Assembly: GCA_964246235.1 (NCBI GenBank)
Contig: CAXTPR010000010.1
Span: 1,946-65,945, forward strand
Length of the DNA: 64,000 nucleotides
Source: an uncultured Acidobacteriaceae bacterium
GTDB lineage: Bacteria > Acidobacteriota > Terriglobia > Terriglobales > Acidobacteriaceae
Reading direction: 5' to 3'
The position numbers and the translations under genes are program-made. Position 1 is the stretch's first letter; every line of letters starts with the position of its first letter. Below, in pieces: positions 4,125 through 40,990 of the stretch. A model generated the notes under the pieces. It was not told the DNA's origin. It saw nothing but the letters and a program-made list of their open reading frames with translations, and did not search any database.

Positions 4125-4604
4125 CTACGGTTCGACCGACGGATCGGGCTGGTCGCCGGGGCCGCGCTCTTCGAGCTGCTTCTGCAGCTCTTCGCGGCGC
4201 TTGTGACGGGCTTCTTCGCGCTTCTGCGCCTTTTCGTTCAGCTCGGCTTCGGCGCCGAGCAGCTCGATGTAGGCCATCTCGCCGGCATCGCCCTTGCGGG
4301 GGCCGGTGCGTGTGATGCGCGAATAGCCGCCGTTGCGCTCGGCATAGCGCGGGGCCACGGTCTTGAAGAGACGGTCAACGGACTCAGGCGTCATGAGGTA
4401 CGCCAGCGCCTGGCGGCGGGCATGCACCGAGCCGTTCTTGCCGAGCGTGATCATCTTCTCCACCAGAGGTCGCGAGGCCTTGGCCTTGGTGATGGTGGTG
4501 TGGACGCGGTCGTTGACGATGATGGACGTAACCAGGTTACGAAGCAGCGCCCTTCGGTGAGAGGTGTTACGGCCTAACTTGAATCCGCCCTTACGATGGC
4601 GCAT
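4125..4604 (-). CDS. rplQ: 50S ribosomal protein L17
   Basis: MRHRKGGFKLGRNTSHRRALLRNL...RNGGYSRI. Confidence 0.98.
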   Translation of the reverse strand: MRHRKGGFKLGRNTSHRRALLRNLVTSIIVNDRVHTTITKAKASRPLVEKMITLGKNGSVHARRQALAYLMTPESVDRLFKTVAPRYAERNGGYSRITRTGPRKGDAGEMAYIELLGAEAELNEKAQKREEARHKRREELQKQLEERGPGDQPDPSVEP

Positions 4605-4672: not shown

Positions 4673-4720
4673 GTAGCGCAGCGGAGGAAAGCAGATTCCT
4701 CCACTGCGCTACGGAATGAC
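4673..4720. repeat. REP-like palindrome (copy A) between rpoA and rplQ
   Basis: 17-bp inverted repeat GTAGCGCAGCGGAGGAA / TTCCTCCACTGCGCTAC with one mismatch. Minus strand contains GTCATTCC...GAGGAATCTGCT. Confidence 0.75.
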
Positions 4721-4772: not shown

Positions 4773-5867
4773 CTAGAAGCTCTCCGTCTCGTTGTCGAGA
4801 TCGAGATCGTCGTCTTCGTCGTCCTCTTCCTCGTCATCGAAGCTGCCGTAGCTCGCCGCCAGCGTCGCCGCAGGCAGGACCGAGGTCGGGCCCGGGACCG
4901 GCTGACCGGTTTCGTCGATACGCATGCCCAGCGAGAGGCCCATCTGCGCGAGGATTTCCTTGATCTCGTTCAGGGATTTGCGGCCGAAGTTCTTGGTCTT
5001 CAGCATCTCGGCTTCGGTCTTCTGGATGAGCTCGCCGATCGTCGCGATGTTGGCATTCTTCAGGCAGTTGTAGCTGCGCACGGAAAGCTCAAGCTCTTCG
5101 ACCGAGCGGTTCAGGTTCTCATTGCGGATCGCCGGACCGTCGAGCCCATCGTGACCACCCGCCTCCATCTCCTCTTCGAAGTTGATGAAGATGGTCATGT
5201 GGTCTTTGAGCAGCTTGGCCGAAAGCCCCAGGGCGTCAGCAGGGAGCACTGTCCCGTTGGTCCAGATCTCCATGGTGAGCTTGTCGTAATCGGTGATCTG
5301 ACCGAGACGGGCTGCCTCGACGAGGTAGTTGACCTTGCGCACCGGCGAGTGAACCGAGTCGACCGGGATGAAGCCCAGGCCGAGGTCGGTGTCGAAGTTC
5401 TTGTCCGCCGAGACATAGCCACGGCCGCGCTTGAGGCGCATTTCCATGTCGATGCGGCCACCCTCCGAGACCGTGCAGATGTACACGTTCGGATCGAGGA
5501 TCTCGACGTCGCCGTCGGCCTCGATCATGCCCGAGGTCACCTGGCCGGCGGCATCGGCGCGCAGGTAGAGCGCCTTGGGGCCGTCGCCGTTGAGCTTGAA
5601 CGGGATCTGCTTGAGGTTGAGGATGATGTCGGTCGCATCTTCGACAACGCCCGAGATCGACTGAAACTCATGGAGCACGCCTTCAATGCGGACGGCCGTC
5701 ACGGCAGCGCCTTCAATCGACGAAAGCAGTGTACGGCGCAGGGCGTTGCCAATCGTGGTGCCAAAGCCGCGCTCAAAGGGCTGCGCGGAGAACTTGCCGA
5801 AGTTCGGGGTAAGGGATTCGTTGTCGACGGCGAGACGCTTGGGCTTCTGGAAACCTCTCCAAAGCAT
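4773..5867 (-). CDS. rpoA: DNA-directed RNA polymerase subunit alpha
   Basis: [21 protein letters not shown]; [15 protein letters not shown] and [14 protein letters not shown]; acidic C-terminal tail. Confidence 0.99.
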
Positions 5868-17287: not shown

Positions 17288-17318
17288 CTGCAGCCACTTT
17301 CACGCTTATGCGTTCTGC

Positions 17319-19148
17319 CTACTCCAACGCGATGAGCAACCCCTCGCCGCCCTCCAGCGTGACCTCGCCCTCCACCGCCGCGCCTTCGCCATCCAGCAGC
17401 GTGGTCAAGACCACCGTCCCCTTGGGGCTCTGCGTCTTGATCTCCTCGCTGCCCAGGTTCAGCAGCACCAGGAAGTCGCTGCTGTGGCCCTCCTCCAGGC
17501 CCACGCGCCGATAGCGCAGCAGCGTGCCCTTCGCGGCAATGTCGGCTATGCCGCCCACATGCAGCGTGTCATGCTGGCGGCGCAGGTGCAACAGCTTGCG
17601 ATAGAGGGTCAGCATGGAGCGCTTGTCTTGGCGCTGCACCGCCGCGTTGCGGGTCGGCCAGTCCGCCTGCAGCGGCAGCCAGGGCGTGGCCTCGGGTGTG
17701 GTGAACCCCGCGTTGGGTGCGTTCACCCACAGCATGGGCGAGCGCTCTGGGTCGCGGCCACGGCCCTTGCCGGGTTCATTCTTCTCGGCAGGATCGCGCA
17801 CCTGGCCGGGCGCGATCGGCACGTCCTCCATACCCAGCTCGTCGCCATAATAGAGCGTGGGCGTGCCGCGCAGCGTAAGCAGCAGCATCGCCGCCACACG
17901 CGCCTGCTTCGCACCGATGCGTGAAGCCAGGCGCGGCTGGTCGTGGTTGCCGAGCACGTAGTTCGGCCAGGCACCAGGAGGGAGCAGCCGTTCGTAGGTG
18001 GTGATGATCTCGGCGACGGCTGCGGCGTTCCATGCGGTCTGGATGAGGTGGAAGTTGAAAGGGAGGTTCGCGCCCTGAAGCTGGCCGCGCATACCGGCCG
18101 CCGGCCTCTCCGGCATGCCGTAGTAGCGGACCAGCTCCGGCAGGGGCAGGTAAATTTCGCCGATCAGCACACGGTTGCTCAGCCCAGAGGCGAGACTCCG
18201 TTGATCACGTGCAGGAGCAGACGCAGATCCTCCGCCTTCGGCGAAGGATGACAAGAAAGAGGGCGACTTCGGTTCCGTCCCCTTCTCCTTGTTCCCTGTT
18301 TCCTTTCTCCCCGGCAGTGTGTCCGGGTAGCCATCGAGGATCGTCCGCATCTCCGCCACGATCTCGTGCGTTTCCGGCTGATCGGATGTGTAGACCGGCA
18401 GCGTGGCAGCGTAATCGTGCATGTCTCCGTGGTAGTCCGGGTTAGGCGGGTTGCTGCGGAAGTGTGCGTCCTTGATGAGCAGCCAAAGCACATCCATGCG
18501 GAAGCCGTCGACACCGCGGTCCAGCCAGAATTGCATAGCCGCATAGATCGCGGCGCGTACCCTGGAACTGCGCCAGTTCAGGTCGGGCTGCTCCTTCAGA
18601 AAGGAGTGGCAGTAGAACTGCTCGGTTTCGGCGTCCCACGTCCATGCCGGGCCGCCCAAGTGCGACATCCAGTTGTTGGGATATTGCACGCTGCGTGGCC
18701 GGGTGTCTTCGCCAGGCTGCAGCCCTGGGTACGGCGCGGGGTCGTGCCACAGGTACCAGTCGCGCTTGGGGCTTTCGCGCGAGGCGCGCGACTCGCGGAA
18801 CCACGGATGAAGATCGGAGCTGTGATTTGGCACGAAGTCCAGAATCACGCGAAGACCCTTGCCATGTGCGGTAGCTAGCAGGTCATCGAAGTCGGCCAGC
18901 GTGCCGAAGAGCGCGTCCACGCCGGTGTAGTCGGCTACGTCGTAGCCGAAGTCCGCCATCGGCGAGGGATAGAAGGGTGAGATCCAGAGAGCGTCTACGC
19001 CCAGGCCGGCGATGTAGTCCAGACGAGCCGTAATGCCGCGTAGATCCCCGATGCCGTCGCCGCCGGTGTCCTGAAAGCTGCGCGGGTAGATCTGGTAGAT
19101 CACGCCCGTTTGCCACCACTGCTGCCCTGAAACCTCAGTGTCCGCCAT
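17319..19148 (-). CDS. GH13 alpha-glucosidase / alpha-amylase family protein with a 50-aa insertion
   Basis: YQIYPRSFQD, DFGYDVADY, DFVPNHSS; catalytic DGFRMDV, LIGEIY and LGNHD all intact. Confidence 0.93.
   Translation of the reverse strand: MADTEVSGQQWWQTGVIYQIYPRSFQDTGGDGIGDLRGITARLDYIAGLGVDALWISPFYPSPMADFGYDVADYTGVDALFGTLADFDDLLATAHGKGLRVILDFVPNHSSDLHPWFRESRASRESPKRDWYLWHDPAPYPGLQPGEDTRPRSVQYPNNWMSHLGGPAWTWDAETEQFYCHSFLKEQPDLNWRSSRVRAAIYAAMQFWLDRGVDGFRMDVLWLLIKDAHFRSNPPNPDYHGDMHDYAATLPVYTSDQPETHEIVAEMRTILDGYPDTLPGRKETGNKEKGTEPKSPSFLSSFAEGGGSASAPARDQRSLASGLSNRVLIGEIYLPLPELVRYYGMPERPAAGMRGQLQGANLPFNFHLIQTAWNAAAVAEIITTYERLLPPGAWPNYVLGNHDQPRLASRIGAKQARVAAMLLLTLRGTPTLYYGDELGMEDVPIAPGQVRDPAEKNEPGKGRGRDPERSPMLWVNAPNAGFTTPEATPWLPLQADWPTRNAAVQRQDKRSMLTLYRKLLHLRRQHDTLHVGGIADIAAKGTLLRYRRVGLEEGHSSDFLVLLNLGSEEIKTQSPKGTVVLTTLLDGEGAAVEGEVTLEGGEGLLIALE
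18223..18254 (-). repeat. REP-like palindrome (copy B) in frame inside the GH13 gene
   Basis: Minus strand TTGTCATCCTTCGCCGAAGGCGGAGGATCTGC has the same ends as copy A. Confidence 0.72.
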
Positions 19149-40927: not shown

Positions 40928-40990
40928 TCCTGCACCCTAAGCCCTGCACCCTAAGCCCTGCGCCCTAAGCCCTGCACCCTATACCCTATC
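40928..40990. repeat. Heptamer tandem array (9 units, CCCTgca/CCCTaag)
   Basis: TCCTGCA CCCTAAG CCCTGCA CCCTAAG CCCTGCG CCCTAAG CCCTGCA CCCTATA CCCTATC. Confidence 0.9.
40982..40987 (+). promoter_or_regulatory. Putative -10 (TACCCT) 6 nt before ATG, embedded in the heptamer array
   Basis: TACCCT-ATCCCC-ATG(40994), with no SD. Confidence 0.5.

Follow-up and report, generated by a model that had tools for sequence, protein, structure and literature searches.

A dispersed palindromic repeat in frame in the α4-to-β5 loop of an Acidobacteriaceae GH13 α-glucosidase-like gene

How does a glycoside hydrolase gene come to hold fifty extra, stop-free codons just ahead of its catalytic glutamate, and what kind of DNA are they made of? 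The question is raised by a GH13 α-glucosidase-like gene (17319-19148, minus strand; an intact open reading frame (ORF) of 609 aa in the ORF list) in a 64,000-nt stretch of contig CAXTPR010000010.1 from an uncultured Acidobacteriaceae bacterium, hereafter the window, where residues D276-N325 (18174-18323, minus strand; DTLPGRKETGNKEKGTEPKSPSFLSSFAEGGGSASAPARDQRSLASGLSN) separate ...ILDGYP from RVLIGEIY. A first-pass annotation had read this segment as intergenic-type DNA, heptamer runs plus a repetitive extragenic palindromic (REP) sequence, inserted in frame into the active-site region in the manner of the Rickettsia palindromic elements (RPEs). That observation holds in part: the in-frame 50 codons, the palindrome and the intact motifs stand, while the heptamer runs, the four-residue spacing to the catalytic Glu, the active-site location and the assignment of the whole 150 nt to a repeat do not. 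We propose that, very probably, a dispersed short palindromic repeat sits in frame in the expanded α4-to-β5 loop of a functional-looking GH13 α-glucosidase, which tolerates it much as rickettsial proteins tolerate RPEs.

A dispersed palindrome within an intact GH13 gene

The 609-aa protein gives a full-length Pfam match to PF00128 (residues 19-531, E = 9e-124) together with a C-terminal DUF3459 domain, and the order of an FmdE-like gene, the GH13 gene and a Band_7 gene is kept in relatives. Its motifs DFVPNH, GFRMD(219), GE(331)IY and NHD(403) are all invariant and are those of a GH13 retaining glycosidase, with D219, E331, H402 and D403 occupying invariant columns among 56 orthologs, as the first-pass annotation had maintained for the catalytic motifs in general. 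On the minus strand, the codons fall at 18492-18494 for the catalytic nucleophile D219 (region II, GFRMDV), at 18156-18158 for the general acid/base E331 (region III, GEIY, at the C-terminal end of β5) and at 17940-17942 for the transition-state stabilizer D403 (region IV, NHD). Translation likewise bears out exactly 150 nt, or 50 codons, between LDGYP and RVLIGEIY; the distance from the insert to E331 is five residues (RVLIG) rather than the four given earlier.

Only some 38-47 nt of the 150-nt insert are demonstrably repeat-derived. The core of the dispersed element (18217-18254, minus strand; TTGTCATCCTTCGCCGAAGGCGGAGGATCTGCGTCTGC) encodes L299-A311 (LSSFAEGGGSASA), and a 3' extension, GTCTGCTCCTGC (18211-18222, minus strand; S-A-P-A), matches the hexamer-type, T/C-rich flank found after copies of the family. 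The palindrome itself, GCAGATCCTCCGCCTTCGGCGAAGGATGACAA (18223-18254), has a chance expectation of 0 matches and reads GTC-ATCCTTCGCC-GAA-GGCGGAGGAT-CTGC on the coding strand, where its arms (18240-18249 and 18227-18236) and the loop GAA (18237-18239) form a hairpin spanning 18227-18249. RNA folding of the coding strand gives a 10-bp stem of nine Watson-Crick pairs and one G-U pair at -16 kcal/mol; an A-C mismatch takes the place of the G-U on the other strand. The palindrome reported by the first-pass annotation is thus real, is multi-copy outside the window, and is REP-like in the broad sense: a short (20-40 nt) imperfect palindrome that folds into a stem-loop, here with a 10-bp stem, a 3-nt loop and a 30-38-nt unit. 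Its ends, GCAG and GTCAT, place it outside the GTAG/CGTC-tagged REP superfamilies, which are defined by one of those tetranucleotides at an end of the palindrome, and it is also not a miniature inverted-repeat transposable element (MITE), a class of 70-300 bp with terminal inverted repeats and a target-site duplication, the conserved unit here being about 50 nt with its flanks included.

Upstream of the core lies a purine-rich tract, KETGNKEKGTEPK on the coding strand (18267-18313, minus strand), and similar tracts are found in two repeat-less orthologs, L001 and L003, described below. The heptamers AGGAAAC and AGGGAAC are indeed present in it, although as just two adjacent copies (18291-18304) and not as runs, and Tandem Repeats Finder returned no heptamer array. 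No promoter or terminator was predicted at the insert, Rfam placed no family at the element (one sub-threshold, spurious IRES_Bip match fell elsewhere in the GH13 gene), and a protein search with the 50-aa insert as query yielded zero candidates. The predicted tryptic peptide spanning the repeat is SPSFLSSFAEGGGSASAPAR.

The 64-kb window contains no second copy of the palindrome (≤3 mismatches, 19-nt core, blastn-short), so its status as a repeat had to come from outside. Scanning one genome per prokaryotic species with the pattern GTCATCCTTC-N(6-14)-GGAGGATCTGC gave at least 118 matching stretches; among the matches listed, nearly all are from Acidobacteriaceae and most lie outside confirmed genes, the hosts including three cultured Granulicella, namely G. 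rosea DSM 18704 (at least 9 copies), G. aggregans and Granulicella sp. L46, as well as Edaphobacter and many metagenome-assembled genomes (MAGs). The 133 copies analyzed below are drawn from these listed matches. The window's exact 30-mer recurs, at 30/30 identity, as 18 copies in other loci of several Acidobacteriaceae genomes, most of them outside confirmed genes; 28 of the 133 copies carry a stem of GCC...GGC with the loop GCA, 27 have a stem shorter by 1 bp (GCGAAGC), and across copies the loops vary while the stems remain paired. The family as a whole is REP-like, with a GTCAT head, a 9-10-bp stem, a GMA loop and a CTGC tail, and its consensus with flanks is C-T-TTTT-AG-TT-[GTCAT...CTGC]-TTTTGCCTTT, where both flanks are pyrimidine-rich hexamer-type runs and the 5' one includes a TAG before the head. 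It is predominantly extragenic: about 6-8 of the 133 copies (~5-7%) are in frame inside confirmed genes, a tally made over species genomes in place of the source genome for which the first-pass annotation had suggested it.

Two further observations concern the distribution of the family. Several copies (L037, L054, L056, L074, L068, L092, L111) come from MAGs labeled Gammaproteobacteria or Rhodanobacteraceae, and these are either mis-binned acidobacterial contigs or instances of cross-phylum spread. At L032 (2420-2875), three copies with near-identical flanks follow one another at an exact 213-nt spacing, showing that the palindrome can belong to a longer tandemly repeated unit.

The same insert is found in run X1, a public run of a close relative that differs from the window by 9 substitutions across the GH13 gene (5 of them non-synonymous). 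Its contigs cover 17300-18246, 18217-18368 and, with a third, the sequence from 18339 onward; they stop inside the palindrome (18217-18246), where they overlap by 30 nt and the summed contig depth climbs from ~9 to ~50, because at least six other contigs share the core. Further X1 contigs match from 18212, 18217, 18219 or 18221 to 18253-18263 with 1-3 mismatches and continue into unrelated flanks, and the core is therefore multi-copy in the X1 organism. Misassembly, which the first-pass annotation had named as a way for its reading to fail, is unlikely, as both halves of the gene reach the repeat on their own contigs and independent assemblies of orthologs also have repeats in the loop. A separate X1 contig joins 18908 to 19080 and so omits 171 nt of the N-terminal GH13 part; the shorter side of this join is only 20 nt, and it probably reflects a paralog or a chance anchor, not a deletion variant.

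Recurrent occupation of the loop and copies in other genes

Alignment with orthologs, as the first-pass annotation had suggested, separates what is old in the insert from what was added. Among 77 usable distant orthologs (38-55% identity, from a metagenome scan with ortholog alignment), the segment from EMR to the end of RVLIGEIY measures 18-29 residues in 76, and 19 in most, and those displayed read ...YPD followed directly by RVLIGEIY, without a loop. The ancestral loop was consequently of essentially zero length, against which the window shows a gain of 49 residues. Within the Acidobacteriaceae clade, 120 close orthologs (66-82% identity) have loops of 13-87 aa in 91 distinct sequences, the shortest form being YGPTMGAANGGSS-RVLIGEIY; longer loops go with longer proteins (r = 0.92), and the loop is the main internal indel site.

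Outside the loop, the three closest orthologs (L001, L002 and L003) share 85-87% identity with the window, and the palindrome is missing from two of them. L001 and L003 have loops of 26-28 residues whose ends are common with the window (DTLxxG... and ...LxxxLSN), while L002 carries, at the identical codon position and in the identical frame, a palindrome from a sister subfamily (32 nt; TTGTCATTCCGCAGCGAAGCGGAGGAATCTGC), and the sequence downstream of it is homologous to the window's. This comparison assigns about 25 residues of the window loop to a repeat-specific addition and makes the remainder older; the 150 nt are not one insertion event. The description of the insert as intergenic-type DNA is borne out for its core; the loop ends (DTL... 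and ...LxxGLSN) are also present in the palindrome-less L001 and L003.

DNA examined for five further orthologs widens the picture. L202 (P0100) holds the same family in reverse orientation (GCAGATCCTCCGCTTCGCGAAGGATGAC, read as KQILRFAKDD), together with a second fragment of a head. In L203 (P0104) three GTCAT-headed units stand in tandem; L204 (P0010) has one such unit, L205 (P0092) two, of the VISTEAAQ... and NLSSRPE...ERLA types, and L206 (P0023) a long GTCATCCTGAGC type. The loop in close orthologs hosts at least five repeat subfamilies, in both orientations, and two of the other subfamilies are dispersed as well (27 and 9 copies across 0.9 Mb of unrelated loci). Recognizable repeat-derived peptides occur in at least 16 of the 120 orthologs, an undercount, because other loops have xDD or RNDS motifs encoded by GGATGAC or GGAATGAC. 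P0100 is 82% identical to a short-loop ortholog, so that its insertion is independent of the window's. The same GH13 loop has been colonized repeatedly in related enzymes and is a permissive sink for such elements, and possibly a preferred target; this larger pattern, a recurrent landing or retention site for several subfamilies, is what the first-pass annotation missed.

An AlphaFold2 model built with 56 sequences (predicted template modeling score 0.83) places the insert in the α4-to-β5 connection, between a confident helix (258-272) and a confident strand (327-331), with residues 282-322 below 50 in the predicted local distance difference test (pLDDT). The first-pass annotation had noted that RPEs insert into surface loops. 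The closest structures are those of the Halomonas α-glucosidase (3WY1-4) and XgtA (6AAV), at Foldseek E values of ~1e-52 and TM-scores of 0.87-0.88 normalized to the target; the top match, 3WY4, is titled as the E271Q mutant, and E331 would be the counterpart of its E271, judging from the conserved GE motif. In the HMMER alignment, the ~83 residues of the query in this region face ~24 of 6AAV. In a (β/α)8 barrel the catalytic residues stand at the C-terminal ends of the strands, and the α-to-β connections lie on the opposite face. By this topology, rather than by measured distances, the insert is predicted to occupy the barrel face opposite the active site, which would explain why it is tolerated; its location in an active-site region holds in linear sequence and probably not in the fold. 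A second segment below 50 in pLDDT, residues 346-356 (window 18081-18113, the GMPERPAAGMRGQLQG region), has no counterpart in the 6AAV alignment; it shows no repeat and resembles a lineage-specific loop of smaller size.

Copies in other genes were sought among the 133 by requiring ≥90 open codons to either side, and twenty were tested with Pfam. In seven, Pfam domains flank the repeat on both sides. The NAD-dependent DNA ligase LigA of L046 has it between the Zn finger and the helix-hairpin-helix, with a peptide, LSSFAEGGGSASAPA, identical to the window's; an aconitase-family large subunit (L108) has it inside a domain as LSSFAEGGGSA, and its alignment to a PDB entry is interrupted at the insert; two ABC exporters (L084, L112) carry it in the sense frame in the linker between transmembrane and nucleotide-binding domains; and RecG (L079, as KQILRFAKDD), MutS (L006, in several units) and RlmN (L063) carry it between domains in antisense. 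For an OB+HD protein (L065), the Pfam domains all lie upstream of the copy, and support comes from an open frame and the GC content at third codon positions (GC3) on both sides. When open frame and GC3 on the two sides served as an independent test, six of these in-gene copies were recovered, along with L071, a deltaproteobacterial MAG sequence that we rejected as a chance, non-palindromic match, and long frames over the copies in L017, L026, L036, L048, L049, L054, L087, L106, L110, L113 and L120 were not accepted as genic, Pfam support on both sides being absent. The in-gene copies use just two of the five stop-free frames, LSSFAxGGGSA and KQILRxAKDD, and lack the consensus TAG, a stop in the LSS frame. 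Multi-copy occurrence with unrelated flanks, a loop absent from distant orthologs, insertion into other genes and a disordered loop all agree with the earlier proposal of an RPE-like, in-frame insertion that creates new peptide sequence. The MutS gene of L006 (3804-6770, an Edaphobacter MAG) shows consecutive antisense units between domains II and III (VLRFAKDD... KQILRFAKDD... KQVLRSAK...), and repair genes are also prominent among those with intragenic REPs in other phyla (Di Nocera et al., PMC3733652).

The only related element elsewhere in the window is of a different, GTAG-headed subfamily: this second REP-like element (4673-4720) fills part of the gap between the ORFs at 4125-4604 and 4773-5867 and consists of GTAGCGCAGCGGAGGAA-AGCAGA-TTCCTCCACTGCGCTAC, with a 17-bp stem, followed by GGAATGAC, its other strand reading GTCATTCCGTAGCGCAGTGGAGGAATCTGC. 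In L002 (2300-2345) the flank downstream of the palindrome is a better pairing partner for the right arm than the left arm is (GCGGAGGA-AUCUGC-UUCCGCUC, z = -2.3), and the same alternative hairpin is present in the window element at 4673-4712; units of these two types may be overlapping or nested palindromes. Apart from these elements, the window has four tandem copies of the 14-nt unit CCTGCACCCTAAGC at 40929-40984 (direct-repeat family D5).

Weighing the explanations

In the explanation that we favor, the element supplies ~13-17 residues (LSSFAEGGGSASAPA) and, with older low-complexity material, makes up the disordered excursion of 49-50 residues. It would have arrived by transposition, or else through recombination among copies of the repeat, the obvious candidate enzymes being Y1/HUH transposases, relatives of which are reported in Acidobacteria (TIRYT, PMC3733652; class 3 TnpAY1, PMC6006769). 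The excursion would be tolerated because it would lie on the N-terminal barrel face, remote from the strand ends that bear the catalytic residues, and selection would retain only copies that stay in frame, do not use the single frame with a stop, lack the TAG before the head and encode small or hydrophilic peptides. Several results weigh against this account or narrow it. The purine-rich upstream half of the loop is not assignable to the element, and the whole 150-nt insert folds no better than shuffled sequences (z = -1.0); no target-site duplication is visible at five in-gene copies or at the window copy, so that recombination or gene conversion among copies of the repeat would account for the arrangement just as well as insertion. 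The different subfamilies at the position shared by the window and L002 suggest replacement of repeat by repeat, or re-insertion beside an existing copy, in preference to simple descent. Copy number per genome is known through the close relative in run X1 and the scan of species genomes, the window itself holding one copy; and a search of public RNA runs found none containing the GH13 gene, so that translation of the element and activity of the enzyme are predicted from sequence.

Could the in-frame insert be a product of assembly, two unrelated sequences joined through a short genomic repeat and never contiguous in the cell? The length of the repeat is close to that of an assembler's word, and the X1 contigs do break at 18217-18246 with an overlap of just 30 nt; but each half of the gene enters the repeat on a contig of its own (17300-18246 and 18217-18368) with the frame open, and independent metagenome assemblies of L002 and L202-L206 show repeats in the loop, with a homologous downstream flank in L002, leaving an artefact highly improbable. 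We give equally little credence to a home-grown loop, enlarged by local slippage or low-complexity drift and bearing its palindrome by chance or convergence. Such an origin would suit a loop that is of low complexity and hypervariable in all close orthologs, has flanks present in palindrome-less ones, and includes a purine-rich half of no demonstrable repeat origin, yet the core already contradicts it: it is identical over 30/30 positions to 18 copies elsewhere, where the chance expectation is 0, LSSFAEGGGSASAPA recurs in the unrelated LigA gene, and X1 has multiple copies with unrelated flanks.

A somewhat less remote, though still unlikely, alternative accepts the insertion and holds that it is disabling, the gene being on its way to a pseudogene or the enzyme crippled by 50 residues placed five before its acid/base. 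The insert is near E331 in the sequence, and the 9 differences from X1, 5 of them non-synonymous, are too few for a test of selection. Against this stand the full-length ORF, the invariant catalytic residues and the confident fold of the rest of the protein; many lineages keep loops of up to 87 aa in proteins that are otherwise 70-85% identical, which implies purifying selection on the remainder, and barrel topology would put the entry of the loop into β5 opposite the active site. Of similarly low probability is the converse, a domesticated element retained for a function, be it of an mRNA hairpin (in pausing, stability or as an RNase site) or of a disordered peptide (as linker, interaction site or localization signal). 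The G-U pair makes the stem continuous solely on the transcribed GTCAT strand, a strand bias that Di Nocera et al. (PMC3733652) take to indicate action at the RNA level; in addition, just two of five open frames are used within genes, and the hot spot recurs across orthologs. The search pattern itself fixed the G-U bases, however, so that a family-wide bias has no independent support, antisense copies are unable to form the G-U stem in mRNA, and the orthologs, with unrelated subfamilies, both orientations, varied lengths and many insert-free members, speak against a conserved function.

A tolerated, RPE-like repeat thus remains the explanation that we prefer. It can be extended to one that we consider possible but rather doubtful, in which GTCAT...CTGC palindromes would be active and self-targeting, inserting preferentially near earlier copies or their hexamer-run flanks. 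Long disordered loops (≤87 aa) would then grow stepwise at a few permissive sites in repair and housekeeping proteins; the GH13 loop would be a genuine insertion hot spot at the DNA level and more than a place where selection lets insertions pass, and replacement would explain the difference between the window and L002.

Relation to known repeat systems

In-frame palindromic repeats are, to our knowledge, a textbook case of selfish DNA making protein sequence, known mainly from Rickettsia and a few other genomes, and a full-text literature search found no description of them in Acidobacteria. The present data point to wide operation of the same process in free-living soil Acidobacteriaceae, and the recurrent colonization of one enzyme loop is the feature most deserving of follow-up. 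It offers a natural series from a loop of 0 residues in distant relatives to ~80 extra ones, with identifiable subfamilies in both orientations, on which one can test how far an α-to-β loop of a TIM barrel tolerates expansion and whether the site is chosen by the element or filtered by selection. There is a practical side as well: such repeats break short-read assemblies within genes, split profile alignments, and inflate the number of "hypothetical" peptide motifs (LSSFAEGGGSA, KQILRFAKDD) in metagenome annotations.

In-frame MITEs are known from cyanobacteria (Nezha) and from Neisseria (Correia/NEMIS), and a review describes MITEs as non-autonomous repeats that can be co-translated with host genes (PMC10969869). 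MITEs differ from the present element in measuring 70-300 bp and having terminal inverted repeats and target-site duplications, where the element here is one short hairpin. The GTAG/CGTC REPs found in genes (PMC3733652) are closer: they too are 20-40-nt imperfect palindromes, mostly extragenic, with G-T pairs in the stem and an in-frame minority in ORFs among which DNA replication and repair genes are prominent, as are LigA, MutS and RecG here. They differ in the head, which in our family is GCAG (GTCAT on the other strand), although the window element at 4673-4712 is GTAG-headed; Granulicella, Edaphobacter and the present family are absent from the main text of that survey, which also discusses the Rickettsia elements. 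On the protein side, HaG of Halomonas sp. H11 (3WY1-4) and Xanthomonas XgtA (6AAV) share the fold and the catalytic motifs (D219, E331, D403), and their structures are without the long α4-to-β5 excursion.

The nearest parallel in behavior is that of the Rickettsia palindromic elements, RPE-1 to RPE-8, reportedly described by Ogata et al. in 2000. Both are dispersed palindromes that lie between genes and, in frame, within conserved ones, adding peptide at permissive surface sites while the ORF is kept. The two are not known to be related in sequence, and the element here is ~38-47 nt, compared with roughly 100-150 nt for RPE-1; its hosts are free-living soil Acidobacteriaceae with large genomes, whereas Rickettsia are intracellular with reduced ones. 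The likeness claimed is accordingly one of apparent behavior and not of family membership, host phylum, length and consensus all being different, and what sets the acidobacterial case apart is that a single enzyme-family loop has been hit repeatedly, by several subfamilies.

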